DNA of 64,000 bases, from the NCBI RefSeq assembly GCF_044704955.1, contig NC_091999.1:35154001-35218000 (forward strand). The letters run 5' to 3'. Shown piece after piece: positions 6,821 to 58,238 of the stretch. This DNA comes from Pristiophorus japonicus. Taxonomy: Eukaryota. The notes under the pieces are model-generated. The model worked only from the letters and a program-made list of their open reading frames with translations. It made no database searches and had not been told where the DNA came from. The position numbers and the translations under genes are program-made. Every line of letters starts with the position of its first letter. Positions within the stretch are counted from its first letter, which is position 1.

Positions 6821-8038
6821 GGTCAAAGGTTGTATTTTAAAATGCTGCCATTAAAATCATTGTGTCTGAAGTTCAGGGCCTGAGCAAAGTCTTACGCTGC
6901 TCCATTTATTATCAGGGGCCTGTTCTTTTATCTTGCCTGGGATGTCATTCCCACACTGGGATTTACACTGGGTCCATATAAAAGTGTTAGCAATTCCGCG
7001 GGGAACATCTGTAAGTGCATGAGGCAGAAGGACTCACCGAACCTGAGTTTTACACTGTGTGAGCTGCACCCTCAGAGCGGCTGGAAGCTGGGACTGTGCT
7101 CGTTAGAGCAGAGCAGGTTATGGCCCACTTAATAGAGGTGTTCAAAATGGTGAAGTGTTTTGATCGGGTATAAACGGAGATACGCCATTACTCCCTCCCA
7201 CCCTCCACCAGTATCTCCTTCTCTCCCTCCCTTCATCCCTCCCTACATCAATTGCACACTCCCTTTCCCCAACCCTCCCTCCCCTTATCCCTCGCTCCAA
7301 CCCTGCTTCACTCCACCCCGGCCTTGATCCACTCCTTTCACCCTCCATCCATCCCTCAGCCCAAACGATTCTTTTTTTCCCCTTTGCAGTGTTTCTGCTT
7401 CCATCGATGGGGATTCGTCAGCTGGAATTTTCTGCAGCCAAATCCTTCACCGGGATTTCATATATTTTAAGAAATAAGAGAGAGCGCGATGCTAAATCTA
7501 TACATTTAATCCCTCCACCCTCCCCTAAAAAAGTGATGTGAAATAACATGTTGACCTTTCCGTAGAGGGAGTTGGTTGGAAACTGGCGTTGGGTAGAAAT
7601 TCTAGTTGGGGCAGTCAGGATATTTTTACTTTTTTTAAATAAAAAAAATAAATTTTTACAAGACATCGTCGACTTTCAGCTGCCCTTTTTTCCACCCCCT
7701 TCTCGCTGTTGAGGACGGACCAGTTCCCGCCTCGATCTCGCTGCCATTGTGTATGTGGGATGGTAGGACACACGCTCTCACTACGCTGACAGACTTTGAG
7801 AAGCTGGGTCTGTTCACCTTACAGCAGAGAAGGGTGAGGGGAGATTTACCAGATTGGTACCAGGGATGAATGACTAGAAATACGAGTTCAGCCTCAGCTG
7901 TAGTATTGTGTCCAATTCTGGGCACCACACTATAGAAACATAGAAACATAGAAACATAGAAAATAGGTGCAGGAGCAGGCCATTCAGCCCTTCTAGCCTG
8001 CACCGCCATTCAATGAGTTCATGGCTGAACATGAAACT

Positions 8039-11025
8039 TCAGTACCCCATTCCTGCTTTCTCGCCATAACCCTTGATCCCCCGAGTAGTAAGGACTTCAT
8101 CTAACTCCCTTTTGAATATATTTAGTGAATTGGCCTCAACTACTTTCTGTGGTAGAGAATTCCACAGGTTCACCACTCTCTGGGTGAAGAAGTTTCTCCT
8201 CATCTCGGTCCTAAATGGCTTACCCCTTATCCTCAGACTGTGACCCCTGGTTCTGGACTTCCCCAACATTGGGAACATTCTTTCTGCATCAAACCTGTCT
8301 AAACCCGTCAGAATTTTAAACGTTTCTATGAGGTCCCCTCTCATTCTTCTGAACTCCAGTGAATACAAGCCCAATTGATCCAATCTTTCTTGATAGGTCA
8401 GTCCCGCCATCCCGGGAATCAGTCTGGTGAACCTTCGCTGCACTCCCTCAATAGCAAGAATGTCCTTCCTCAAGTTAGGAGACCAAAACTGTACACAATA
8501 CTCCAGGTGTGGCCTCACCAAGGCCCTGTACAACTGTAGCAACACCTCCCTGCCCCTGTATTCAAATCCCCTCGCTATGAAGGCCAACATGCCATTTGCT
8601 TTCTTAACCGCCTGCTGTACCTGCATGCCAACCTTCAATGACTGATGTACCATGACACCCAGGTCTCGTTGCACCTTCCCTTTTCCTAATCTGTCACCAT
8701 TCAGATAATAGTCTGTCTCTCTGTTTTTACCACCAAAGTGGATAACCTCACATTTATCCCCATATACTTCATCTGCCACGCATTTGCCCACTCACCTAAC
8801 CTATCCAAGTCACTCTGCAGCCTAATAGCATCCTCCTCGCAGCTCACACTGCCACCCAACTTAGTATCATCCGCAAATTTGGAGATACTGCATTTAATCC
8901 CCTCGTCTAAATCATTAATGTACAATGTAAACAGCTGGGGCCCCAGCACAGAACCTTGCGGCACTCCACTAGTCACTGCCTGCCATTCTGAAAAGTACCC
9001 GTTTACTCCTACTCTTTGCTTCCTGTCTGACAACCAGTTCTCAATCCACGTCAGCACACTACCCCCAATCCCATGTGCTTTAACTTTGCACATTAATCTC
9101 TTGTGTGGGACCTTGTCGAAAGCCTTCTGAAAGTCCAAATATACCACATCAACTGGTTCTCCTTTGTCCACTTTACTGGAAACATCCTCAAAAAATTCCA
9201 GAAGATTTGTCAAGCATGATTTCCCTTTCACAAATCCATGCTGACTTGGACCTATCATGTCACCATTTTCCAGATGCACTGCTATGACATCCTTAATAAT
9301 TGATTCCATCATTTTACCCACTACTGAGGTCAGGCTGACCGGTCTATAATTCCCTGTTTTCTCTCTCCCTCCTTTTTTAAAAAGTGGGGTTACATTGGCT
9401 ACCCTCCACTCCATAGGAACTGATCCAGAGTCAATGGAATGTTGGAAAATGACTGTCAATGCATCCGCTATTTCCAAGGCCACCTCCTTAAGTACTCTAG
9501 GATGCAGGCCATCAGGCCCTGGGGATTTATCTGCCTTCAATCCCATCAATTTCCCCAACACAATTTCCCGACTAATAAAGATTTCCCTCAGTTCCTCTTC
9601 CTTACTAGACCCTCTGACCCCTTTTATATCCGGAAGGTTGTTTGTATCCTCCTTAGTGAATACCGAACCAAAGTACTTGTTCAATTGATCCGCCATTTCT
9701 TTGTTCCCCGTTATGACTTCCCCTGATTCTGACTGCAGGGGACCTACGTTTGTCTTCACCAACCTTTTTCTCTTTACATACCTATAGAAACTTTTGCAAT
9801 CCGCCTTAATGTTCCCTGCAAGCTTCTTCTCGTGCTCCATTTTCCCTGTCCTAATCAAACCCTTTGTCCTCCTCTGCTGAGTTCTAAATTTCTCCCAGTC
9901 CCCAGGTTCGCTGCTATTTCTGGCCAATTTGTATGCCACTTCCTTGGCTTTAATACTATCCCTGATTTCCCTAGATAGCCACGGTTGAGCCACCTTCCCC
10001 TTTTTATTTTTACGCCAGACAGGAATGTACAATTGTTGTACTTCATCCATGCGGTCTCTAAATGTCTGCCATTGCCCATCCACAGTCAACCCCCTAAGTA
10101 TCATTCGCCAATCTATCCTAGCCAATTCACGCCTCATACCTTCAAAGTTACCCTTCTTTAAGTTCTGGACCATGGTCTCTGAAATTACTGTTTCATTCTC
10201 CATCCTAATGCAGAATTCCACCATATTATGGTCACTCTTCCCCAAGGGGCCTCGCACAATGAGATTGCTAATTAATCCTCTCTCATTACACAACACCCAG
10301 TCTAAGATGGCCTCCCCCCTAGTTGGTTCCTCAACATATTGGTCTAGAAAACCATCCCTTATGCACTCCAGGAAGTCCTCCTCCACCGTATTGCTTCCAG
10401 TTTGGCTAGCCCAATCTATGTGCATATTAAAGTCACCCATTATAACTGCTACACCTTTATTGCATGCACCCCTAATTTCCTGTTTGATGCCCTCCCCAAC
10501 ATCCCTATTACTGTTTGGAGGTCTGTACACAACTCCTACTAACGTTTTTTGCCCTTTGGTGTTCTGCAGCTCTACCCATATAGATTCCACATCATCCAAG
10601 CTAATGTCTTTCCTAACTATTGCATTAATATCCTCTTTAACCAGCAATGCTACCCCACCTCCTTTTCCTTTTATTCTATCCTTCCTGAATGTTGAATACC
10701 CCTGAATGTTGAGTTCCCAGCCCTGATCATCCTGGAGCCACGTCTCCGTAATCCCAATCACATCATATTTGTTAACATCTATTTGCACAATTAATTCATC
10801 CACCTTATTGCGGATACTCCTTGCATTAAGACACAAAGCCTTCAGGCTTGTTTTATTAACACCCTTTGTCCTTTTAGAATTTTGCTGTACAGTGGCCCTT
10901 TTTGTTCTTTGCCTTGGGTTTCTCTGCCCTACACTTTTCCTCATCTCCTTTCTGTCTTTTGCTTTTGGCTCCTTTTTGTTTCCCTCTGTCTCCCTGCATT
11001 GGTTCCCATCCCCCTGCCATATTAG
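8039..11025 (-). CDS. CR1 ORF2: AP endonuclease + reverse transcriptase (1-nt frameshift at ~8760; frame open upstream of the first ATG at 10944 into the ORF1 end)
   Basis: NARS, ITETWL, GDFN, SDH endonuclease motifs; QGSVLGP and FADD RT motifs; ORFs 8701-10944 and 8039-8791 join. Confidence 0.95.
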
Positions 11026-11969
11026 TTTAAATCCTCCCCAACAGCACTAGCAAACACTCCCCCTAGGACATTGGTTCCAGTCCTGCCCAGGTGCAGACCG
11101 TCCGGTTTGTACTGGTCCCACCTCCCCCAGAACCGGTCCCAATGCCCCAGGAATTTGAATCCCTCCCTGCTGCACCACTGCTCAAGCCACGTATTCATCT
11201 GCGCTATCCTGCGATTCCTACTCTGACTATCACGTGGCACTGGTAGCAATCCCGAGATTACTACTTTTGAGGTCCTACTTTTTAATTTAGCTCCTAGCTC
11301 CTTAAATTCGTTTCGTAGGACCTCATCCCTTTTTTTGCCTATGTCGTTGGTACCAATGTGCACCACGACAACTGGCTGTTCTCCCTCCCATTTCAGAATG
11401 TCCTGCACCCGCTCCGAGACATCCTTGACCCTTGCACCAGGGAGGCAACATACCATCCTGGAGTCTCGGTTGCGGCCGCAGAAACGCCTATCTATTCCCC
11501 TCACAATTGAATCCCCTATCACTATCGCTCTCCCACTCTTTTTCTTGCCCTCCTGTGCAGCAGAGCCAGCCACGGTGCCATGAACTTGGCTGCTGCTGCC
11601 CTCCCCTGATGAGTCATTCCCCTCAACAGTACCCAAAGCGGTGTATCTGCTTTGCAGGGGGATGACCGCAGGGGACTCCTGCACTACCTTCCTTGCTCTA
11701 CTCTTCCTGCTGGTCTTCCATTCCCTATCTGGCTGTGGACCCTTTCCCTGTGGTAAGACCAACTCACTACACGTGATACTCACGTCATTCTCAGCATCGT
11801 GGATGCTCCAGAGTAAATCCACCCTCAGCTCCAATTCCGTAACGCGGACCGTCAGGAGCTGGAGGCGGATACACTTCCCGCACACGTAATCGTCAGGGAC
11901 ACCGGAAGCGTCCCTGAGTTCCCACATGGTACAGGAGGAGCATAACACCCGACCGAGCTCTCCTGCCAT
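11022..11969 (-). CDS. CR1 ORF1 (315 aa): CxxC...CxxC zinc knuckle + leucine zipper + SGNH esterase domain
   Basis: CSSC/CGKC, heptad leucines; SGNH blocks GDS, PGA, GTND, DGLH all intact. Confidence 0.95.
   Translation of the reverse strand: MAGELGRVLCSSCTMWELRDASGVPDDYVCGKCIRLQLLTVRVTELELRVDLLWSIHDAENDVSITCSELVLPQGKGPQPDREWKTSRKSRARKVVQESPAVIPLQSRYTALGTVEGNDSSGEGSSSQVHGTVAGSAAQEGKKKSGRAIVIGDSIVRGIDRRFCGRNRDSRMVCCLPGARVKDVSERVQDILKWEGEQPVVVVHIGTNDIGKKRDEVLRNEFKELGAKLKSRTSKVVISGLLPVPRDSQSRNRRIAQMNTWLEQWCSREGFKFLGHWDRFWGRWDQYKPDGLHLGRTGTNVLGGVFASAVGEDLN
11025..11031 (-). promoter_or_regulatory. Candidate -1 ribosomal frameshift heptamer U_UUA_AAC
   Basis: ORF1 ends GAT TTA AAC TAA; the -1 frame TTT AAA CTA ATA TGG... 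is the ORF2 frame. Confidence 0.7.
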
Positions 11970-12136
11970 GTCTTAACCCTTAGATACACTTAAACTGGTA
12001 ATAACAATGTTAAAAGTTACTGACCAATATAAGAAGAAAAAGAAAAACTACTCACCAATCACCAGCCAATCACTTACCCCCTAGGCTGTGACGTCACCTT
12101 TGTTTTTTTGCCTTCTCCCTGTAGCTGCACCGGTAC

Positions 12137-12406
12137 GCCTCTCGCCGACCCCGGACTCACGCTGCTCCGAGCTCCCGCCTCCTCGACTGACTGCTCGAAC
12201 TGCTCGACTCCCGCTGGCCTTTATAGGCCTCTCGCCGACCCCGGACTCGCGCTGCTCCGAGCTCCCGCCTCCTCGACTGACTGCTCGAACTGCTCGACTC
12301 CCGCTGGCCTTTATAGGCCTCTCGCCGACCCCGGACTCGCGCTGCTCCGAGCTCCCGCCTCCTCGACTGACTGCTCGAACTGCTCGACTCCCGCTGGCCT
12401 TTATAG
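12137..12406 (-). repeat. Three 90-bp CpG-rich 5'UTR monomers, each starting CTATAAAGG
   Basis: Units start at 12137, 12227 and 12317 on +; identical except one base. Confidence 0.95.
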
Positions 12407-12409
12407 TGT

Positions 12410-13925
12410 GTAGTGCAATATAACTCAGACAGGACCTAGTGTAATATAAACCAGGTCATGAATTTTATTAACCGAGAAATATCTGTTTCAGTAATATTTG
12501 ATATCGAGACTTATGTAATATAAACAGATATATGGTCAGATATAATTTAAATGAAATATATTCTGGTGCAGAAATAACTGGGACTGGGCCATGTGTAATA
12601 TAAACAGGGACATGGTCCAGTACAATATAAACTAAGACCAGGTTAAGTACACTAATAACTTAGACAGTTATGCCCTGCTGAAGTTACACTGATCGAGAGA
12701 ATGCCTCTGTTAAAAGTACAGTAGGACATGTCTTAGTTTTTGTTGCAAAGGAACTTGTCTCTGTTTATGTTACAGTAGGTCCAGTCTCTGTTTATATTAC
12801 AGTCGACAATATCTCAGTTTATATTACAGTAGACAAGTGCTCAATTTATAATACACTGGACAATATCTCTGTTTATATTACACTAGACAATGTCTCAGTT
12901 TATATTACACTCGACAATGTCTAAGTTTATATTACAGTAGACAATGTCTCAGTTTATATTACACTAGACAATATCTCTGTTTATATTATACTAGACAATG
13001 TCTCTGTTTGTATTGTACTAGACAATGTCTCTGTTTATATTACACTAGAATATTTCTCTATTTATATTACGCTAGACAAGGTGCATGTTTACATTGTCCT
13101 GGAGAATGTTTCTGTTTATATTACACAAGACAATCTCCCTGTTTACATTACACGAGACAATGTCTCAGTTATTACTGCACCAGACCATATCGCTGGTATC
13201 TTCCACTAGGTCCTGTCTCCGTTAGTACTGTACTAGACTCTGTTTCTGTTAATATTGCACAATGTCCAGCCTCATTCATCATTGCACTTGACCCGGTCAC
13301 TAGATATATTACAATATGTTCTGCATCTGTTCATATTACACTGAGCCATACCTCAGTTATTACTGTACTAAGCCATGTCTCTGTTTATATTACACAATTT
13401 TCTAGTGTAATATAAACAGAGACATTGTCGAGTATAATACAAACAGAGACATTGTCTCGATCAGTGTCTCTTTATATTACACTAGGCTCTGTCTCAGTTA
13501 TCGCTGCACTAGAACCATGCATGTGATTAAATTACAATCAGCCTTGTCTCAGTTTACATTACACGATGCCCTGTCTCAGTTATTATTGTTATGGACCGTG
13601 CCTATGTTCATGTCGTCTTAGGTTAAGTACTGTCTCATTTATTGCTGCACTCGGCTATGTATCTCTCACATTACACGAAATCTTACCTCAGTTAAATTGC
13701 ACGAGGCAATGTCTATGTTTATAGTACACTGGTCACTCTCAGTTATTATAATCTATACCATGTCTCTATATATGTTACACTAGGCACTGTCGCAGTTTTT
13801 ACTATACTAGACGATGTCTCCTCTATGTATTGCTCTAGGTGTTGTCTCTGTTATTAATGGATTAGAATATTCCTCTGTTTAAATTTCACGATACGCTTTA
13901 TCAATTAGTTCTGAACTATACCATG
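12410..13925. repeat. 27-bp minisatellite, degenerate, in both orientations
   Basis: tagtgtaatataaac (-) units at 12410-12670 and 13400-13455; tattacactagac (+) units elsewhere. Confidence 0.85.
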
Positions 13926-23369: not shown

Positions 23370-24645
23370 GGCACAGCTATGACTGCACAAGACCATGTCT
23401 CAGTTTCTAGGCACTGTCTCTGTTTATATTGTATTAAGCCCTGTCTCTGTTTAAATTACACTAGACACTGTCTCTGTTTATATTACACCGGGCCCTGTCT
23501 CTATTCATATTACACACGACTCTGTCTCTGTTTATATTACACTAGATCCTGTCTCTGTTTATGTTACACTAGACCCTGTCTCTGTTTATATTACACTGGA
23601 TCCTGTTTCTGTTTAAATTACACTAGAACCTGTCTCTGTTTATAATACACTAGACTCTATCTCTGTTTATATTACACTAGACCCTGTCTTTCTTTATATT
23701 ACACGAGACCATGTCAATGTTGATATTACACTACAACCTGTCTCTGTTTATATTATACTGGACCCTGTCTCTGTTTATATTACACTAGACTCTGTCTCTG
23801 TTTATATAACACTAGTCCCTGACACTGTTTATTTTACACTGCAAGCTCTCTCTTTTTATATTATACTGGACCCTGTCACTGTTTATATTACATTAGACCC
23901 TGTCTCTGTTTATATTACACTGGGCCCTGTCTCTGTTTATATGACACTAGATCCTGTCTCTGTTTATATTAAATTGGGCCCTGTATCTGTTTATATTACA
24001 CAAGACCCTGTCTCTCTTTAGATTACACAAGACCATGTCAATGTTGATATTACACTACAACCTGTCTCTGTTTATATTATACTGGACCCTGTCTCTGTTT
24101 ATATTACACTAGACTTTGTCTCTGTTTATATAACACTAGTCCCTGTCACTGTTTATTTTACACTGCAAGCTGTCTTTGTTTATATTATACTGGACCCTGT
24201 CACTGCTTATATTACATTAGACCCTGTCTCTGTTTATAATACATCAGATTCTGTTTCTGTTTATATTACACCAGACACTGTCTCTGTTTATATTGTCCTC
24301 GACTCTGTCTCTCTTTATATTACACTAGACGATGTCTCTGTTTATTTTACACTAGACCTTGTCCCGGCTTATATTACATTAGAACCTGTCTCTGATTAAA
24401 TTACACTAGACCCTGTCCCTTTTTATATTACACTAGATCCTGTCCCTGTTTATATTACATTAGACCTTGTCCCTGTTTATATTACATTAGACCTTGTCCC
24501 TGTTTATATTATACTAGACCCTATCTCTGTTTATATTACATTAGACATTGCCCCTGTTTATATTACACTATCCCTATCTCTGTTTATATTACACTAGACC
24601 CTGTCTCTGCTTATATTACACGGGGTCATGTATTCATTGCACTGC
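23370..24645 (+). repeat. 27-bp minisatellite, long homogeneous array
   Basis: Tandem units; includes a higher-order duplicated block (23705 and 24028 gaccatgtcaatgttg...). Confidence 0.95.
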
Positions 24646-39013: not shown

Positions 39014-42000
39014 TGTGATATATGTGGATTTGTATTTACTCTGTACAGCAACCAGAGGGCTCATTCCCCGGAGTCGCAAGGCATCCCATCATCCCTTGGA
39101 AGCACAACTATTTATGAAGGCTTCACAGGTTGGTGAGGCACTCTGCAATAAAAGACTAAGGTCACACTTTACTTTGAGCTCACAGTTTTCAATCTGACTC
39201 TTTCTCCATACACTACAACTGGCGATGAGATACAGTTAGCAAACCCAAAGATGCAGGGAACAGTGTGCATCCTGGAGAAATTTTCGCAGGGAGATGATTG
39301 GGAGACTTTTGCCGAGCGACTCGACCAATACTTCGTGGCCAACGAGCTAGATGGGGAAGAGAACGCTGCCAAACGAAGGGCGATCATCTTCACCCTCTAT
39401 GGGACACCAACGTATGGCCTCATGAAGAATCTGCTCGCTGCATCGAAACCAACGGAGAAATCATGTGACGATTTGTGCACACTGGTCCGAGAGCATTTGA
39501 ACCTGAAAGAAAGCATTCTGATGGCGACGTACAAGTTCTACACCTACAAAAGATCTGAAGGCCAGGAATAGCGATTCATCTCGCCGAGCTAAGACGCCTT
39601 GCAAGACATTGCGAATTTGAAGGACATTTGGAGCATATGCTCAGAGACTTTTTCGTACTTGGCATTTGCCACGAAACCTTACTTGGCAAACTTTTGAGTG
39701 TAGAGACACCAACCTTGAGTAAGGCCATAGTGATAGCCCAGGAGTTCATCGCCACCAGTGACAAAACTAAGCAAATCGCTCAGCACACAAGTGCTGCTAC
39801 AAGTACTATGAACAAAGTGATTTTTTTTCGAATCGGAACGTACAGGACAGGTCACACATTCCTGCAGCGACACGTCGGCCGATGTCTCCGAGTCACCCAT
39901 CAAGCGTGATGAATGCAAGGCCAATAACACCTTGTTGGCACTGCGGGGATGATCATCGTTTCCATTCATGCCGTTTCAAAGGATACGTTTGAAAGGGCTG
40001 TGGAAAATTGGGACACCTCTAACGAGTGTGCAGGCGAGCTGCTAAGCCTTCTAAACCTGCAAACCATCACGTTACAGAGGAGGATCATGAAGAAACAGAG
40101 CTTCAGATAGAGGAGGCAGAGGTACATGCGGTACACACATTCACCACGAATTGTCCCCCCGACAACACTGAATGTTGAACTCAATGGACTCCCGGTGTCA
40201 ATGGAGCTGGACATGGGCGCAAGCCAGTCCAATATGGGCAAAACGACTTTTGAAAGATTGTGATGGAACAAGGCCTCAAGGCCAGTCTTAACTCCAATTC
40301 GCACGAAACTAAGAACGTACACAAACGAACTGATTCCTGTAATCGGCAGTGGTACCGTAAAGGTCTCTTATGATTGAGCGGTTCACAAGCTACCACTCTG
40401 GGTGGTATCGGGCGATGGTCCCACGCTGCTCAGCAGGAGCTGGTTTGGAAAGATACGCTGGAACTGGGATGACATCCGAGCGCTATCGCCCGCTGACGAC
40501 ACTTCCTGTGCCCAGGTCTTAAGCAAATTTCCTTCGCTGTTTGAACCAGGCATCGGAAAACAACCAGGAGCAAAAATGCAGATGCACCTAATTCTGGGGG
40601 CGCGACCCATCCATCAGAAGTCGAGAGAAGTACCGTACATGATGAGAGAAAGGGGAGTGATCGAGCTTGACCGGCCACAAAGAGAGGGCATCATTTCACC
40701 GATCGAGTTCAGTGCGTGGGCCAGTCCTATTGTCCAGTCCTCAAGGTGGATGGAATCGTCAGAATCTATGGTGATTACAAAGTAACTATCAATCGTTTCT
40801 TCCTGCAGGACCAATACCAATACCAAAAGCCGATGACCTCTTTGCAACGCTGGCGGGAGGAAAGACCTTCCCGAAGCTGGATCTGACTTAAGCCTACATG
40901 ACGCAGGAACTGGAGGAATCAGCAAAGGCCGTCACCTGCATCAACACGCACAAATGTATTTTTGTTTATAACAAATATCCATTTGGATTTCGATCAGCGG
41001 CGGCGATATTCCAGAGAAACATGGAAAGTTACTGTAGTCGGTCCCGCACACCGTGGTCTTCCAGGACGAAATCTTGCTCACAGGTCGGAACACAGTCGAG
41101 CAGCTGCAGAACCTGGAGGAGGTTCTTAGTCAACTCAACCGTGTGGGGCTCAGGTTAAAACGCTTGAAGTGAGCGCAATCGAGAACGCACTGAGGCCACA
41201 GAACGTGACGGAGCTGCGGTCGTTTCTGCGACTCTTGAACTACTTTGATAACTTCTTACCGGGTCTCATCACCCTGCTAGGACCACGACATGTCTTCCTA
41301 CGAAAAGGAGGCGAATAGGTTTGAGGCAAAAGCCAAGAAAATGCCTTTGTAAAAGCGAGAAAATTATTATGCTCAAACAAATTGCTCGTGTTGTATGATC
41401 CATGTAAGCGTTTGGTACTGGTATGTGTGTATCGGGTGTGTATTGCAACAAGCTAATGATTTTGGGAAACCGCAATTGGTTGCTTATGCATCCAGGCGTC
41501 TGTCTAAGGCCGAGAGAGGCTACAGCATGATTGAAAAAGAAGCGTTAGCGTGTGTCCATGGGGTGAAAAAATGCAGCAAAACCTGGTTGGGCTAAAATTC
41601 GAACTTATGTCCCTGTTTCTCGAGAGTAATGGGATAAATACCAACGCATTGGCGCGCATCCAGAGATGGGCGCTCACGTTGTCAGCATACAATTACGCTA
41701 TTCGCCACAGTCCAGGCACGGAAAACTGCGCTGATGCTCTCAGTAGGCTGCAGTTGCCCACCACGGGGGTGTAAATGTTGCAGCCCGCAGATCCAACAAT
41801 GGTAATGGAAGCATTTGAGGGTGAGCAATCACCCGTCTCTGCCCAGAAGATCAAAACTTGGACAAGCCAGGACCCCTTATTATCTCCAGTCAAAAGCTGC
41901 GTGCTTCATGGGTGCTGGTCCAGTGTATCAGTGGAAATGCAGGAAGAGATAATGCGATTCCAGCGGCGCAGAGATGAAATGTATATACAGGCAGACTGCC

Positions 42001-43433
42001 TTCTGTGGGGCAATCGAGTAGTGGTCCCCAAGAAGGGCAGAGACACCTTCATCAATGACCTTCACAGTACCCACCCAGGCATCATAATGATGAAAGCGAC
42101 AGCCAGATCGCACATGTGGTGGCCCGGTATCGATGTGGATTTAGAGTCCTGCGTTCACAGATGTAATACATGTTCGCAGTTAAGCAATGTACCCAGGGAG
42201 GCGCTCCTGAGTTTATGGTCTTGGCCCTCCAAACCGTGGTCTAGGGTACAGGTCGACTATGCAGGCCAATTCTTGGTTAAAATGTTCCCTGTGGTTGTAG
42301 ATGCATACTCCAAGAGGATTGAATGTGAGATAATGTTGGCTAGCATGTCCGCTGCCACCACTGAAAGCCTGCGGTCCATGTTTGCCAATCACGGCTTACC
42401 CGATGTTCTGGTGAGTGACAACGGGCCATGTTTTACCAGTGCTGAGTTCATAGAATTCAAGACCCGTAACGGGATCAAACATGTCACATCTGCCCAGTTT
42501 AAACCAGCGTCCAACGTTCAGGCAGAGAAAGCAGTGCAAACCTCAAGCAAGGCTTGAAGAGGGTAACTGAAGGCTAACTGCAGACTCGCCTATCCCGAGT
42601 CCTGCTTAGCGACTGCACACGTCCCCACTCACTCACTGGAATCCCACCTGCTGAACTGCTCATGAAAAGAGCACTTAAGACAAGGCTCTCGTTTGTTCAC
42701 ACTGATCTACATGAACAGGTAAAGAGCAGGCGGTTTCAACAAAGTGCATACAATGATAGCGCAAATGTGTTGAAGTCAATGATCCTGTATTTATACTAAA
42801 TTATGAACAAGGTCCCAAGTGGCTTCCCGGAAATGTCGTGGCCAAAGAGGGGAGCAGTGTGTTTCAGGTCCAACTTACAAATGGTCTCATTAAACGGAAA
42901 CACTTGGACCAATTCAAACTCACATTCACGGACTACCCTGAGCAACACACATTGGACCCTACTTTTTTAGATCCCCCAACATACACACCAGTGACGGCCG
43001 ACACCACGGTTGACCACGAAGCAGAACCCATCACCCACACCAGCCCTGCAGAGCCCAACACACGAGGCAGCCCAGCAAGGCCAGCTGCACAGAGCCCAGC
43101 GAGGGCCCAACAAATGATTCATCAACACCAGCTTTCACACCGAGACGATCAACCAAGGTAAGAAGGGACCCAGATCGACTCACATTGTAAATAGTTACCC
43201 TATTGATTTTGGACGGGAGTGCTATTATATTGTGGACTTGTATTTACACGGTACAGCCACCAAAGGGCTCATTACCCGGAGTCCTAAGGGATCTCATAAT
43301 CCCTTGGGAGCACAGGTATTTAAGAAGACTTCACGCGTTGGAGAGCCACTCTGGAGACCTGCATTGCAAGACTAAGTTCGCTCTTTACTTTGAGCTCACA
43401 GTGTTCAGACTGACTCTTTCTCCATACACTACA
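39014..43433 (+). mobile_element. Full-length decayed Ty3/Gypsy LTR retrotransposon (Mag-like)
   Basis: LTRs 39014-39217 and 43220-43433 (TG...CA); 5-bp TSD ATATC; PBS TGGCGATGAG at 39220; purine tract before the 3' LTR; gag-PR-RT-RH-IN order. Confidence 0.95.
39251..43160 (+). pseudogene. Disrupted gag-pol of the Gypsy element
   Basis: Gag DDWETFAERLDQYFVAN; protease LDMGAS; RT WASPIV; RNase H YSMIEKEALA; integrase ORF 41775-42557 (HHCC, VDYAG, SDNG); many stops and frameshifts. Confidence 0.92.
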
Positions 43434-47269: not shown

Positions 47270-50200
47270 ATAGAAACATAGAAACACAGAAAATAGGTGC
47301 AGGAGTAGGCCATTCGACCCTTCGAGCCTGCACCGCCATTCAATGACTTCATGGCTGAACATGCAACTTCAGTACCCCATTCCTGCTTTCTCGCTTTACC
47401 CCTTGATCCGCCTAGTAGTGAGAACTACATCGAACGCCTTTTAGAGTATATTTAGTGAATTGGCCTCAACAACTTTCTGTGGTAGAGAAATCCACAGGTT
47501 CACCACGCTCTGGGTGAAGAAGTTTCTTCTCAACTCGGTCCTAAATGGCTTACCCCTTATCCTTAGACTGTGACCCCTGGTTCTGGACTTCCCCAACATT
47601 GGGAACATTCTTCCTGCATCCAACCTGTCCAACCCCGTCATAATTTTAAACGTTTCTATGAGATGCCCTCTCATTCTTCTGAACTCCAGTGAATACTAGC
47701 CCAGTTGATCCAGTCTTTCTTGATATTTCAGTCCCGCCATCCCGGGAATCAGTCCGGCGAACCTTCGCTGCACTCCCTCAATAGCAAGAATGTCCTTCCT
47801 CAAGTTAGGAGACCAAACTGTACACAGTATACCAGGGGTGGCCTCACCAAGGCCCTGTACAACTGCAGTAACACATCCCTGCACCTGTACTCAAATTCCT
47901 TCGTTATGAAGGCCAACATGCCATTTGCTTTCTCAATCGCCTGCTGTACCTGCATGCCAATCTTCAATGATTGATATACCATGACACCCAAGTGTCATTG
48001 CACCTCCCCTTTTCCTAATCTGTCACCATTCAGATAATAGTCTGTCTCTCTGTTTTTACCACCAAAGTGAATAACCTCACATTTATCCACATTATACTTC
48101 ATCTGCCATGCATTTGCCCACTCACCTAACCTATCCAAGTCACTCTGCAGCATCATAGCATCCTCCTCACAGCTCACACTGCCACCCAACTTAGTGTCAT
48201 CCGCAAATTTGGAGATACTACATTTAATCCCCTCGTCTAAATCATTAATGTACAATGCAAACAGCTGGGGCTCCAGCACAGAACTTTGCGGTACCCCACT
48301 AATCACTGCCTGCCGTTCTGAAAAGTACCCATTTCTCCTACTCTTTGCTTCCTGTCTGCCATCCAGTTCTCAATCCCCGTCAGCACACTATCCCCAATCC
48401 CATGTGCTTTAACTTTGCACATTAATCTCTTCTGTGGGAACTTGTCGAAAGCTTTCTGAAAGTCCAAATACACAACATCAACTGGTTCTCCTTTGTCGAC
48501 TCTACTGGAAACATATTCAAAAAATTCCAGAAGATTTGCCAAGCATGATTTCCTTTTCACAAATCCATGCTGACTTGCAACTATCATGTCACCTCTTTCC
48601 AAATGCGCTGCTATGATATCCTTAATAATTATTTCCATCATTTTAACCACTACCGATGTCAGGCTGACTGGTCGATAATTCGCTATTTTCTCTCTCCATC
48701 CTTTTTTAAAAAGTGGGATTGTATTGGCTACCCACCACTCCATAGGAACTGACCCAGAGTGTATGGAATGTTGGAAAATGACTGTCAATGCATCCGCTAT
48801 TTCCAAAGCCACCTCTTTAAGTACTCTGGGATGCAGTCCATCAGGCTCTGGGGATTTATCGGCCTTCAATCCCATCAATTTCCCCAACACAATTTCCCGA
48901 CTAATAAGGATTTCCCCCAGTTCCTCCTCCTTACTAGACCCTCTGACCTCTTTTATATCCGGAAGGTTGTGTCCTCCTTAGTGAATATCGAATCAAAGTT
49001 CTTGGTCAATTGGTCTGCCATTTCTTTGTTCACCGTTATGACTACCCCTGATTCTGACTGCAGGGGACCTACATTTGCTTCAGTAACCTTTTTCTCTTTA
49101 CATATCTATCGAAGCTTTTGCAGTCCGTCTTAATGTTTGCTGCAAGCTTCCTCTCGTACTCTATTTTCCCTGCCCTAATCAAACCCTTTGTCCTCCTCTG
49201 CTGAGTTCTAAATTTCTCCCAGTCCCTGGGTTCGCTGCTATTTCTGGCCAATTTATATGCCACCTCATTGGCTTTAATAATATCCCTGATTTCCCTTGAT
49301 AGCCATGGGTGAGCCATCTTCCCTTTTTTATATTTACGCCAGACAGAGATGTACAATTGTTGTAGTTCATCCATGCTGTCTCTAAATGTCTGCCATTGCC
49401 CATCTGCAGTCAACCCCTTTAGTATCATTCGCCAATCTATCATTGGCCAATTAACGCCTCATACCTTCAAAGTTACCCTACATTAAGTTCTGGACCATGG
49501 TCTCTGAATTAACTGTTTCGTTCTCCATCCTAATGTAGAATTCCACCATATTATGGTCACTCTTCCTCAAAGGGCCTCGCACAACGAGATTGCTAATTAA
49601 TCCTCTCTCGTTACACAACACCCAGTCTAAGATGGCCTCCCCCCTAGTTGGTTCCTCGACATATTGGTCAAGAAAACCATCCCTTATGCACTCCAGGAAA
49701 TCCTCCTCCACCGTATTGCTTCCAGTTTGGTTAGCCCAATCTTATGCATATTAAAGTCACCCATGATAACTGCTGCACCTTTATTGCATGCACCTCTAAT
49801 TTCCTGTTTGATGCCCTCCCCCACATCACTGCTACTGTTTGGAGGTCTGTACACAACTCCCACTAACGTTTTTTGCCCTTTGGTGTTCTGCAGCTCTACC
49901 CATATAGATTCCACATCATCCAAGCTAATGTCCTTCCTAACTATTGCATTAATCTCCTCTTTGACCAGCAATGCTACCCCACCTCCTTTTCCTTTTATTC
50001 TATCCTTCCTGAATGTTGAATACCTTTGAATGTTGAGTTCCCAGCCCTGATCATCCTGGAGCCACGTCTCCGTAATCCCAATCACATCATATTTGTTAAC
50101 ATCTATTTGCACAGTTAATTCATCCACCTTACTACGGATACTCCTTGCAGTAAGACACAAAGCCTTTAGGCTTGTTTTTTTAACACCCTTTGTCCTTTTA

Positions 50201-51945
50201 GAATTATGATGCAGTGTGGCCCTTTTTGCTTCTTGCCTTTGTTTACTCAACCATCCACTATTGCTTTTTACCTTTCTACCGTCTGTTTCTGGCTCCATAT
50301 TACTTCGCCCTGTCTCGCTGCATAGGTTCCCATCCCCCTTCCATATTCGCTTAAACACTCCAGAACTGCATTAGCAAATGTTACCTCTAGGAGACCAGTT
50401 CCAGCCCGGCCCAAGTGCAGACTGTCCCTTTTGTACAGGTTCCACTTCCCCCAGAACTGGTTCCAATGTCCCAGGAATTTGAATCCCTCCCTCTTGCACC
50501 ACTGCTCAAGCCACGTATTTATTCTAACTACCCTGCTCCCTCTACTCTGATTAGCACGTGGCACTGGTAGCAATCCAGAGATTCCTACCTTTGAGGTCCT
50601 ACTTTTTAATTTAAATCCGAGCTCCCTAAATTCAGCTTGTAGGAACTCTTCCCGCTTCTTACCTATATCGTTGGTACCTACATATACCACGGCAACTGGC
50701 TGTTCACCCTCCCTCTCCAGAATGCTTTGCAGCCGCTCTGAGACATCCTTGACCCTTGCACCAAGGTGGCAACATACCATCCTGGAGTCTAGGTTGCGGC
50801 CGCAGAAACTCCTATCTATTCCCCTTACAATAGAGTCCCCTATCACTTTAGCTCTCCCACTCTTTTTCCCATATTTCTGTGCAGCAGAGCCACCCACGGT
50901 GCCATGAACCTGGCTGCTGGTGCCTTGCCCTGGTAAGTCTTCTTCCCCAACAGTATCCAACACGGTATATCTGTTTTGGAGGGAGATGACAGCAGCAGCA
51001 CTAACTTCCTGCTCTTGCCTTGTCTGTTGGTCACCCATTCACTATCTATCATAAACCTTACTGCGGTCTGACCAACTCACTAAATGTGCTATCCACAACA
51101 TTCTCAGCATCGGGCATGCTCCAGAGTGAGTCTATCCGCAGCTCCAATGCCGTCATGTGGTCTGTCAGGAGCTGCAGCTGGACACACTTCCTGCACACAT
51201 AGTAGTCAGGGACACGGGAAGCGTCCCTGATTTCCCACATAGCACAGGAGGAGCATGACACGGGTCCGAGCTCTCCTGCCATGACTTAACCCTTAAATTA
51301 ATTTACATACTAAAATTTACTGAAACACCAAACAGCTACTTAGTAGTTCGCTGCCAATTAAACCAATCTAAACCTCAGTCTAAAAGAGAGTTATACTTAC
51401 CAGTCGAACAGCTATCCATTTACCAGCTTGGCTGTGACGTCACCTCTCAATTTGGCACCCCTCTATCTTTGTCTGCAGCTGGTTGGGCTGGTCTCTGGGC
51501 CTCCATCTCATACCCTCGCACTCCTTATCAGCTGCTCTAGTGTCAGCACTGGTAGGAAAAACAAGAGAAAACAGCACCAGCCACCCCAACTTGCCCGAAC
51601 TCACCCACTTACCAAATTCACAAATGCCATTCTATGCTGCTGCACTCCGTGCTCTGCACGAACTGCCTCTTTTTAAACTGTATCTAGGTCAGATGACTCA
51701 CTACTGGTCAGTCGTTTACAGAACTGATTTTAACTAGCTGCTACTTGCCTCCTACTGGAGAGTTACCTTGGTTTTCAATGCCTAAACCTGAAAGATCTGA
51801 CTTTTCCCTTTTAAATTAAACTGCTACTTGCCACTAACAATTTATACCAACGTTCAAATGGTTTCAAGAGTATAACCCTTAAATCTCACCCACTTACCAA
51901 ACTCACAAATGCCACTATATGCTGTTGCACTCCGTGCTCTGGAGA
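47270..51945 (-). mobile_element. Full-length decayed CR1 LINE related to 7933-12406, with a different 5'UTR
   Basis: ORF1 pieces (51058-51282, 50268-51038; GDS, GTND, DSLH); ORF2 pieces 47441-50358; (TTTCTATG) tail; multiple frameshifts. Confidence 0.93.
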
Positions 51946-57254: not shown

Positions 57255-57546
57255 GCAGGTAGGAGGTTTAGAGGGGATTTGAGGGGAAATGTCTTCACCC
57301 AGAGACTGGTGGGGGTCTGGAACTCACTGCCTGAAAGGATGGTAGAAGCAGAAATACTCAGCACATTTAAAAAGCATTTTGATTTGCACTTGAAGTGCCG
57401 TAAGCTACAGGGCAACGGACCAAGAGCTGGAGAGTGGAATTAGGCTGCATAGCTCTGTGTCGGCCGGCACGGACACGGTGGGCTGAAATGGCCTCCTTCC
57501 GTGCTGTAAATTTCTATGATTCTATGATTCTAAATCTATGATTCTA
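57255..57546 (+). mobile_element. CR1 3' end
   Basis: (ATTCTATG)n tail. Confidence 0.85.
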
Positions 57547-58238
57547 AATGGGCAGGGTTTAAACTAAAATGGCAGGGGAATGGGAATCTGTGCAGGGAGG
57601 CAGAGAGAAATAAAAAGGCGGCAGAAGCAAAAGGTAGGAAGGAGAAAAGCAAGAGTGGAGGGCAGAGAAATCAAGGGCAAAAATCAAAACTGGTCTACAA
57701 AAGGGCGCACTACAACATAATTCTAAAAGGACAAAGACTGTTAAAAAACAAACCTGAATGCTCGGATTCTCAGTGCGAGAAGCATTCGTAATAAGTTGGA
57801 TGAATTGACTGCGCAGATAGCTGTTAACAGATATGATGTAATTGGGATTATGGAGACATGGTTCGAGGGTAACCAAGGCTGGGAATTCAACATCCAGAGA
57901 TAATCAATATTCAGGAAGGACAGACAGGAAGGAAAAGGAGGTGGGGTAGCGTTACTGATTAAAGAGGAGATTAACGCAATAGTAAGAAAGGACATTAGCG
58001 TGGATGATGTTTTATCTATATGGATACAGCTGCGAAACACCAAAGGGCAGAAAACATTAGTGGGAGTTGTGTGCAGACAATCAAACAGTAGTAGGGAGTT
58101 TGGGGATGGCACCAAACAGGAAATTAGGGACACGTGCAATAAGGGTACAGAAGTTATCATGGGTCACATAAAGCTATAATTTGATTGGGCTATCCAAACT
58201 GGTAGCAATACTGTGGAGTAGGATTTCCTGGAGTGTAT

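Follow-up and report, generated by a model that had tools for sequence, protein, structure and literature searches.

In retroviruses, LTR retrotransposons and nidoviruses, programmed -1 ribosomal frameshifting links the structural ORF to the polymerase (gag-pol, ORF1a/1b): a heptamer of the form X_XXY_YYZ lies at the end of the structural ORF, and the polymerase is encoded in the -1 frame. In equine arteritis virus, the heptamer is G_UUA_AAC, followed by a stop codon. The sequence U UUA AAC is given as the ORF1a/1b site of PRRSV in PMC11818727. LINEs are not generally thought to frameshift for their copying enzyme. The usual model of how their ORF2 is translated derives from L1. Mammalian L1, HeT-A, TART and the non-LTR elements of Paramecium also have to express ORF2 from a bicistronic RNA; for the last of these, +1 frameshifting, reinitiation or readthrough has been suggested, and in the literature compared a conserved -1 heptamer is described for none of these cases. 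Penelope-like elements likewise lack LTRs, and their ORF1 is separated from, and joined to, the RT by a frameshift; according to Craig et al. 2021 (PMC8557442), they belong to another class, however (GIY-YIG, telomerase-related RT), and use a pseudoknot as stimulator.

Among the LINEs of birds, CR1 predominates; it makes up 11.8% of the chicken model chromosomes (PMC11835228). Vertebrate CR1 elements whose ORF1 is of type IVB (a zinc finger/leucine zipper and an esterase), placed in CR1 subgroup 7 by Metcalfe and Casane 2014, have an esterase ORF1, an EN-RT ORF2 and an 8-nt 3' tail in common with the element analyzed here. The word 'frameshift' occurs neither in that study nor in Schneider et al. 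2013, and an earlier report of -1 frameshifting for CR1 was not found in the literature searched, whose coverage does not extend to key older CR1 papers.

Structure of the element and its ORF1/ORF2 junction

Our analysis focused on a window of 64,000 nucleotides from Pristiophorus japonicus, whose minus strand carries a young CR1 LINE. Its 5' UTR (11970..12410, 5' end approximate) consists of three tandem units of ~90 bp, visible as self-matches at 12406-12134; the number of units differs between sister copies. ORF1 (11022..11969) encodes 315 aa with N-terminal Cys motifs and a C-terminal SGNH/GDSL esterase (PF13472, E 3e-14), and ends in ...GEDLN*. ORF2 (8039..11031) lies in the -1 frame and encodes an AP-type endonuclease and a reverse transcriptase (PF03372, PF14529, PF00078); its linker (10825..11024) extends from the slip site to the endonuclease's first conserved Asn, which is codon 68 from the heptamer. 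The ORF2 lesion that the first-pass annotation placed at 8760 is real and is located near 8764, where one base is deleted in comparison with a sister copy of 99.5% identity. A 3' end of 8-nt microsatellite repeats is a hallmark of CR1. The 3' UTR (7933..8038) closes with such a tail, (TTTCTATG)n, which the sister copies also have; neither poly(A) nor LTRs are found. The window element thus has the features of an esterase-type CR1: the ORF1 esterase, the EN-RT ORF2 and the 8-nt 3' tail. Its RT is 57-60% identical to that of bird-like and deep-lineage loci, and the RT tree, built without named reference elements, leaves the deep forks unresolved. CR1 is very abundant in this genome, with 4923 exact matches to one 23-nt ORF1 motif.

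As the first-pass annotation had it, ORF1 ends with GAG GAT TTA AAC TAA. The heptamer U_UUA_AAC (11025..11031, minus strand) stands in X_XXY_YYZ phase and is made up of the third base of Asp and the codons for Leu and Asn; it adjoins the stop codon TAA (11022..11024), for which relatives have TAA, TAG or TGA. The -1 frame is indeed that of ORF2: it has no stop between 11046 and 8701 and continues, as FKLIWQGDGNQCRETEGNKKEPKAKDRKEMRKS, into the endonuclease and the RT. Within the window, TTTAAACTAA is found only twice, each time at a CR1 junction.

Two related copies in the window required some revision of the earlier description. An older one of 89% identity (47270..51298, minus strand) has the decayed heptamer TTTAAGC already noted (50356-50350), and has additionally lost the stop (GAA); its codon matching the ATG at 10944 is AAA, not GTA, and an in-frame ATG is present instead at linker codon 19. 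The other (57549..58238, plus strand) is 5'-truncated and starts ~9 nt before an intact TTTAAAC TAA (57558-57567). The letters reported there are kept, but not in an ORF1 context, because similarity starts at 57549 and the 3' tail of another CR1 lies upstream.

Conservation of the heptamer and of the -1 frame

When genomic copies were anchored on an upstream ORF1 motif, so that the junction was not selected on, 29 out of 30 kept T/G_TTA_AAC. Over three families of this genome the count is 98 out of 108, a figure biased by the many copies that were found using proteins ending in LN. The heptamer is likewise present in 15 of the 16 metagenome loci that show the ORF1 end, located via a far-upstream CLPGA motif. 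Slippery variants among the relatives are U_UUA_AAC, G_UUA_AAC and G_GGA_AAC; the last occurs in two metagenome loci, which read CAG/GCG GGA AAC, so that position X and the following codon covary. In family A, to which the window element belongs, G_UUA_AAC is commoner than U_UUA_AAC (34/62); it is a less perfect heptamer, and this is a point against frameshifting. A search of a random 200 kb of the genome yielded only 3 junctions, and when an amphibian-like ORF1 served as query, most matches were once more to family A. Viral contigs gave one irrelevant partial match and were otherwise blank; GTDB gave three weak bacterial SGNH-like matches that are not LINEs. According to Metcalfe and Casane 2014, the esterase is restricted to vertebrate subgroups. 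Here, four deep lineages possess both the esterase and the junction.

The conservation at the junction acts at the nucleotide level and goes beyond protein coding. The terminal Leu codon is TTA in all 15 Leu-ending rows (background 26/179, 15%), while the Leu of the nearby DGxHL motif uses all six codons over 11 rows; synonymous changes are therefore not tolerated in the heptamer. AAC occupies all rows (background 19/58). Given the amino acids, a slippery heptamer would arise by chance with a probability of 0.04-0.18 per lineage, or ~1e-9 over eight deep groups if these were independent, a product that overstates the significance because the lineages are related. One could argue that only the Leu-Asn residues at the end of the esterase are selected and that the heptamer is a by-product, given that L314 and N315 rank with the best-conserved positions when ORF1 proteins are aligned. 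This reading is already contradicted by the codon usage and is extremely unlikely: there is no variation at the synonymous positions, and Gly takes the place of Leu precisely in those loci whose preceding codon has G as its last base.

At the protein level, 150 representatives were examined, of which 112 have the C-terminal motif; 67 of these end in Asn (62 as LN, GN or KN), including named proteins from lizard, swallow, turtle, eel, ray and chimaera. The LN/GN/KN end is absent from 35 of the 112 and from locus L171. In four sequencing runs from four other organisms, where the joints are single low-depth contigs, none of the variants listed falls within 11030-11022 or 11020-11001; those listed include the first base of the heptamer (T>G) and many upstream positions.

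The -1 frame is conserved as well. Counted from the heptamer, the open stretch of ORF2 measures 997 codons in 10 of 20 stretches analyzed (9 of the 10 youngest) and 930-1006 codons in L135, L137, L144 and L154; no stops were found in the -1 frame of young copies. The endonuclease Asn is situated at 11 different distances (codons 39, 50, 53, 54, 57, 63, 68, 71, 72, 90 and 95; codon 63 in L159), always in -1 phase.

The G-tract downstream of the heptamer

A G-tract (11005..11018, minus strand) with a G5 run at 11014-11010, 10 nt past the heptamer, is a candidate frameshift stimulator. A run of at least 4 G beginning 7-12 nt past the heptamer is conserved in 16 out of 16 lineages, at exactly 10 nt in 12 of them (background 1.4-12%). 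Engineered constructs provide a parallel: in Yu et al. 2014 (PMC3919603), G-rich RNA 6-8 nt past U3A3C causes ~7% -1 frameshifting in reporters. The spacer test there employed (G3U)4, however, whereas the CR1 junctions are natural and contain at best a putative two-tier G-quadruplex motif, in 12 of 16 lineages (background 2-22%).

A stem-loop or pseudoknot 5-9 nt downstream was not detected: RNAalifold predicts 0 pairs on 15 lineages, with programs that cannot model pseudoknots, local folding z-scores of -2.1 to +1.8 give no support for a hairpin, and Rfam returns no match at gathering score. The stretch past the heptamer is too C-poor for a local stem. An 11-nt exact complement of the G-tract within ORF1 (11654..11664, minus strand) is a possible long-range partner. 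Pairing at about -645 to -680 ranks first in family A, L137, L142 and L154 and falls in the top 0.1-4.4% for families B and C; it is absent in L135, L138 and L144. Chance complementarity is plausible, because the ORF1 site encodes a Pro-rich, C-rich motif; we keep this pairing as a lead, though a rather unlikely one. Pairing with the 3' UTR was rejected as a general explanation: only for two family A copies does it rank in the best 2% of windows, against 3.5%, 8% and 26% for the other three copies with a tail. Transcriptional slippage on the G-run was also rejected, because the run lies 3' of the ORF1 stop.

Expression of ORF2 and its consequences

We consider it very probable that esterase-type CR1 elements make ORF2 mainly as an ORF1-ORF2 fusion, via programmed -1 ribosomal frameshifting. 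Of the retrovirus-like frameshift proposed in the first-pass annotation, the heptamer, its phase and the open -1 frame stand; the slipping of the ribosome, its frequency and the action of the G-tract we infer from the sequence. According to this model, most ribosomes would terminate directly after Leu-Asn, setting ORF1p free, and a minority would slip one base back on the heptamer and continue into linker, endonuclease and RT. The product would comprise ~1310 aa in the window family, in line with the earlier estimate, which is correct (315 + 995). The slipping minority would fix the ratio of the two proteins, similar to gag and gag-pol. The G-rich tract ~10 nt downstream, and possibly also the adjacent stop, would probably stimulate the slip. 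The differences from the viral and LTR systems are that CR1 is a non-LTR LINE, has no protease for the fusion, and displays a short G-tract with no conserved hairpin detected. More speculative, and in our judgment possible rather than probable, is the wider proposal that heptamer, stop and G-tract 10 nt on form an ancient, undescribed cassette common to esterase-type CR1 from cartilaginous fish and amniotes to deep lineages. It would produce an esterase-endonuclease-RT polyprotein, with the G-tract as a stimulator of a new kind, whether as a two-tier G-quadruplex, as a tract bound by protein or as one strand of a long-range duplex with ORF1 ~650 nt upstream.

The main alternative is termination-reinitiation, which would yield ORF2 as a separate protein; ribosomes would restart on the AUG of those linkers that contain one and on a non-AUG codon in the others, and the heptamer would be a relic or an aid to termination. 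In family A an in-frame AUG is present at codon 19 or 29 in 43 of 47 copies (codon 29, 10942..10944 on the minus strand, in the young subfamily; mostly codon 19 in older ones), which could be compensatory turnover, and in the bird-like loci L137, L141, L142 and L154 an AUG stands at linker codon 4, two bases past the stop. The earlier statement that the initiator is not conserved therefore holds between lineages, but is weak within family A. Across lineages the linker AUGs occupy non-homologous codons (3, 4, 19, 22, 28, 29, 63 and 89), and no start codon conserved at or near the ORF1 stop, as in L1/SART1-type reinitiation, nor any universal ORF2 AUG was found over the lineages compared. Since Met accounts for 2.5% of ORF2 codons, most linkers of 39-95 codons should hold one by chance. 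No Met precedes the endonuclease Asn in 5 of 8 scorable family B copies, L138 and L159, and the remaining Mets of family B are single and at scattered positions. Absence of an AUG leaves room for reinitiation, because L1 ORF2 is thought to use AUG-independent initiation, according to the Atkins review (PMC5009743); such unusual initiation differs from the slip proposed for CR1. Reinitiation predicts neither the fixed TTA and AAC codons nor the covariation from U_UUA to G_GGA, nor a -1 frame that stays open back to the heptamer over 11 linker lengths. We regard it as unlikely as the sole route, though it may coexist with frameshifting.

It is very unlikely that the junction is instead a conserved RNA or DNA signal (for example in packaging, in ORF1p binding, as an internal promoter or in RNA processing), with ORF2 translated from a spliced or shorter transcript. 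A protein-binding site would suit a G-tract that is kept at the nucleotide level and lacks detectable local structure, but the fit of the heptamer variants to XXX-YYY tRNA re-pairing and the preserved -1 phase would be left unexplained. Readthrough of the stop was rejected, as a ribosome staying in the 0 frame would meet another stop within 0-63 codons.

If CR1 elements frameshift, the active enzyme would be an ORF1-ORF2 fusion in which the RT is linked to a lipid-binding esterase domain. An ORF2 annotated from an internal Met would then have the wrong N-terminus, and assays of ORF2 alone would miss the native protein. In that case, the conserved G-tract, which lacks a hairpin, would be an unusual kind of natural frameshift stimulator.

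Copies of the element and its junction in the shark genome

The CR1 element of the window is a member of a very young and abundant family (family A): a 23-nt motif of its ORF1 has 4923 exact matches in the 5.9-Gb genome, and 150 out of 150 scored matches to the esterase half show 100% identity. ORF1 (11969-11022, minus strand, 315 aa) ends in GAG GAT TTA AAC TAA, as the first-pass annotation had read it, and the -1 frame, open from 11046 onward on this strand, encodes the endonuclease and the reverse transcriptase (RT) of ORF2. In the window copy, ORF2 is broken by a one-base deletion near 8764. Counted from the heptamer, 997 open -1 codons are present in 10 of 20 fetched stretches, including nine of the ten youngest; the slip product would hence comprise 315 + 995 = 1310 aa, so that these sister copies bear out the earlier estimate of a fusion of about 1310 aa. 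The two further window copies cited in that annotation are real, but the one at 57558 is 5'-truncated immediately before the heptamer, and the decayed one at 50355 lacks the stop as well and carries an AUG of its own at codon 19. Within 57400-57570, the truncated element starts about 9 nt upstream of the heptamer and abuts the 3' tail of a different CR1 with the same orientation.

The window CR1 has a 3' tail of 8-nt repeats and a 5' UTR of tandem repeats (12134-12406, minus strand), with units of about 90 bp that each start near TATAAAGG. Among 12 sister loci, the unit motif occurs zero to five times; such variable units recall the promoter monomers of mouse L1. Degenerate tandem repeats with YTRPCL-like and ITLDPVSVY-like translations lie at 1513-2022, 12852-13415 and 23617-24399, one of them adjoining the CR1 5' end. 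Decayed ORFs at 39152-43161 (plus strand) presumably resemble, by their motifs, LTR-retrotransposon gag, RT and integrase.

At 30 loci anchored via an upstream ORF1 motif, the heptamer reads T_TTA_AAC (18), G_TTA_AAC (11) or is mutated (1). Searches with divergent proteins uncovered two further families in the same genome: family B (GGT/AGT TTA AAC TAG, -1 reading FKLAWQGDGNLKIDS) and family C (GCT TTA AAC TAA, -1 reading FKLNSGG). T/G_TTA_AAC is kept in 58 of 62 copies of family A, 18 of 20 of family B and 22 of 26 of family C, counts that are biased because most copies were found using proteins ending in LN. Since genomic copies decay neutrally, the comparison between lineages is the informative one.

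Conservation of the heptamer between lineages

A metagenome scan keyed on CLPGA, a motif lying well upstream of the junction, yielded 43 loci, of which 26 stop short of the junction, one breaks earlier and 16 show it; the heptamer is present in 15 of these 16. Eleven loci are bird-like, i.e. they resemble named bird and turtle proteins, and read GCT/TCT/TGT TTA AAC, with the stop mutated in one. The junctions of L138 (TGT TTA AAC TAG), L135 (TCG TTA AAC TAG), L139 (GCG GGA AAC TAG) and L144 (CAG GGA AAC TAG) belong to CR1-like elements that fall outside both the shark and the amniote groups. These four share the esterase ORF1, a type that Metcalfe and Casane (2014) found in vertebrate subgroups only. 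The RTs of L135, L138 and L144 are 57-58% identical to that of the window and sit on separate long tree branches. In L139 and L144, Gly takes the place of Leu and a G stands before its codon, which retains the XXX-YYY rule; this covariation, G_GGA_AAC, is the key result. The heptamer was not found at the ORF1 end of L171, a different esterase element and one of the 16 loci showing the junction. Its heptamer-free ORF1 end is followed by a C-rich stretch (L171:700-900), and this element type is a possible contrast group.

All 15 Leu-ending rows use TTA for the terminal Leu (background 26/179), and Asn is encoded by AAC in every row (background 19/58), whereas at the Leu of the DGxHL motif, found in 11 rows, all six Leu codons occur. 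Given the amino acids, the probability of a slippery heptamer is 0.04-0.18 per lineage, or jointly about 1e-9 across eight deep groups under an assumption of independence that holds only in part. The distance from the heptamer to the first conserved endonuclease Asn takes 11 different values, with the -1 phase every time; in exonuclease III this Asn, which we take to be catalytically important, aligns weakly with the N-terminal strand (E 0.019). By this sequence comparison, selection acts on the junction at the nucleotide level in CR1 lineages that are deeply separated.

In contigs from four runs of four other organisms, the first heptamer base varies (T>G, at 91% in one run), as do many sites upstream; no variant falls in 11030-11022 or 11020-11001 among the rows listed (36 further rows exist). 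At the protein level, 150 representatives were examined, of which 38 lack the C-terminal motif and 112 were scored: 67 are Asn-final (LN 50, GN 10, KN 2, other 5), ten have an internal LN/GN/KN/PN near the same position (KN in six), and the remaining 35 show neither feature. Named proteins ending in LN come from rays, sharks, a chimaera, an eel, a lizard, turtles and a swallow. Representatives P0183, P0199, P0222, P0233, P0242 and P0248 carry K-N at the usual LN/GN end and continue for 8-14 residues, which fits a putative A_AAA_AAC slip site inside ORF1. ORF1 ends in FF or FL near this position in P0163, P0188, P0194, P0205, P0215, P0217, P0218, P0245 and P0252; these ends could hide a U_UUU_UUN heptamer or may equally form an amphipathic helix. 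P0007, which a public record names an SGNH hydrolase of Pseudomonas aeruginosa, is a shark-type CR1 ORF1 (61% identical), probably through host contamination of that record.

Candidate stimulator and competing explanations

The absence of a classical stimulator at the CR1 junctions counts against frameshifting; a search for conserved local RNA structure around the junction found none. In all 16 lineages, four or more consecutive G begin 7-12 nt past the heptamer (background 1.4-12%), exactly 10 nt past it in 12 of them, and the position of this run downstream of the ORF1 stop rules out a coding role in the 0 frame. Possibly it acts as a two-tier G-quadruplex, for which a motif can be formed in 12 of 16 lineages (background 2-22%); engineered quadruplexes placed 6-8 nt downstream gave about 7% -1 frameshifting (Yu 2014, PMC3919603, portion covered). 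The G-tract might instead pair with ORF1: in the window it has exact 11-nt complementarity to 11664-11654, and the homologous, proline-encoding site is its top-ranked partner in family A as well as in three of the bird-like loci, whereas the deep lineages do not show this ranking. It may also bind a protein, by analogy with protein-stimulated viral frameshifts.

Very probably, a minority of ribosomes would slip by -1 with the Leu and Asn tRNAs on UUA AAC, aided by the G-tract, located at the entry channel for the mRNA, and perhaps also by the neighbouring stop, leaving ORF1p plentiful and the esterase-endonuclease-RT fusion scarce. Production of ORF2 by reinitiation seems unlikely to us. In-frame AUGs do occur in the linker between heptamer and endonuclease Asn in 43 of 47 scorable family A copies (codon 29: 30, codon 19: 14, codon 18: 1), and four bird-like loci have an AUG two bases past the stop, so that reinitiation may coexist with frameshifting there. 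However, AUG positions vary from lineage to lineage, five of eight scorable family B copies as well as L138 and L159 have no linker AUG, and at a Met frequency of 2.5% chance alone would yield such AUGs. That the junction serves another role is less probable still, and we give hardly any credence to the heptamer being a by-product of amino-acid selection. The junction is a real feature, and its sequence is best interpreted as a site of programmed -1 frameshifting with an unusual G-tract.

Relation to previous work

The portions covered of the full-text literature on CR1, non-LTR elements and frameshifting did not yield any account of -1 frameshifting in CR1. 'CR1' is absent from the first 300,000 of 449,034 characters of the Atkins 2016 review, and 'frameshift' from the covered text of Schneider 2013 and Metcalfe 2014. 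The same holds for CR1 frameshift terms in the covered parts of Galbraith 2021, and for a CR1 -1 frameshift in those of Guerin 2017, Rodriguez 2017, Craig 2021 (PMC8557442), Yu 2014, a 2025 review of programmed frameshifting (PMC11818727), snake and butterfly CR1 papers, and the first 300,000 characters of a chicken report (PMC11835228). The original CR1 descriptions may mention an overlap or a frameshift, a possibility we rate somewhat below even. The junction would represent a known mechanism, programmed -1 frameshifting, in an element class where frameshifting is not the accepted model.
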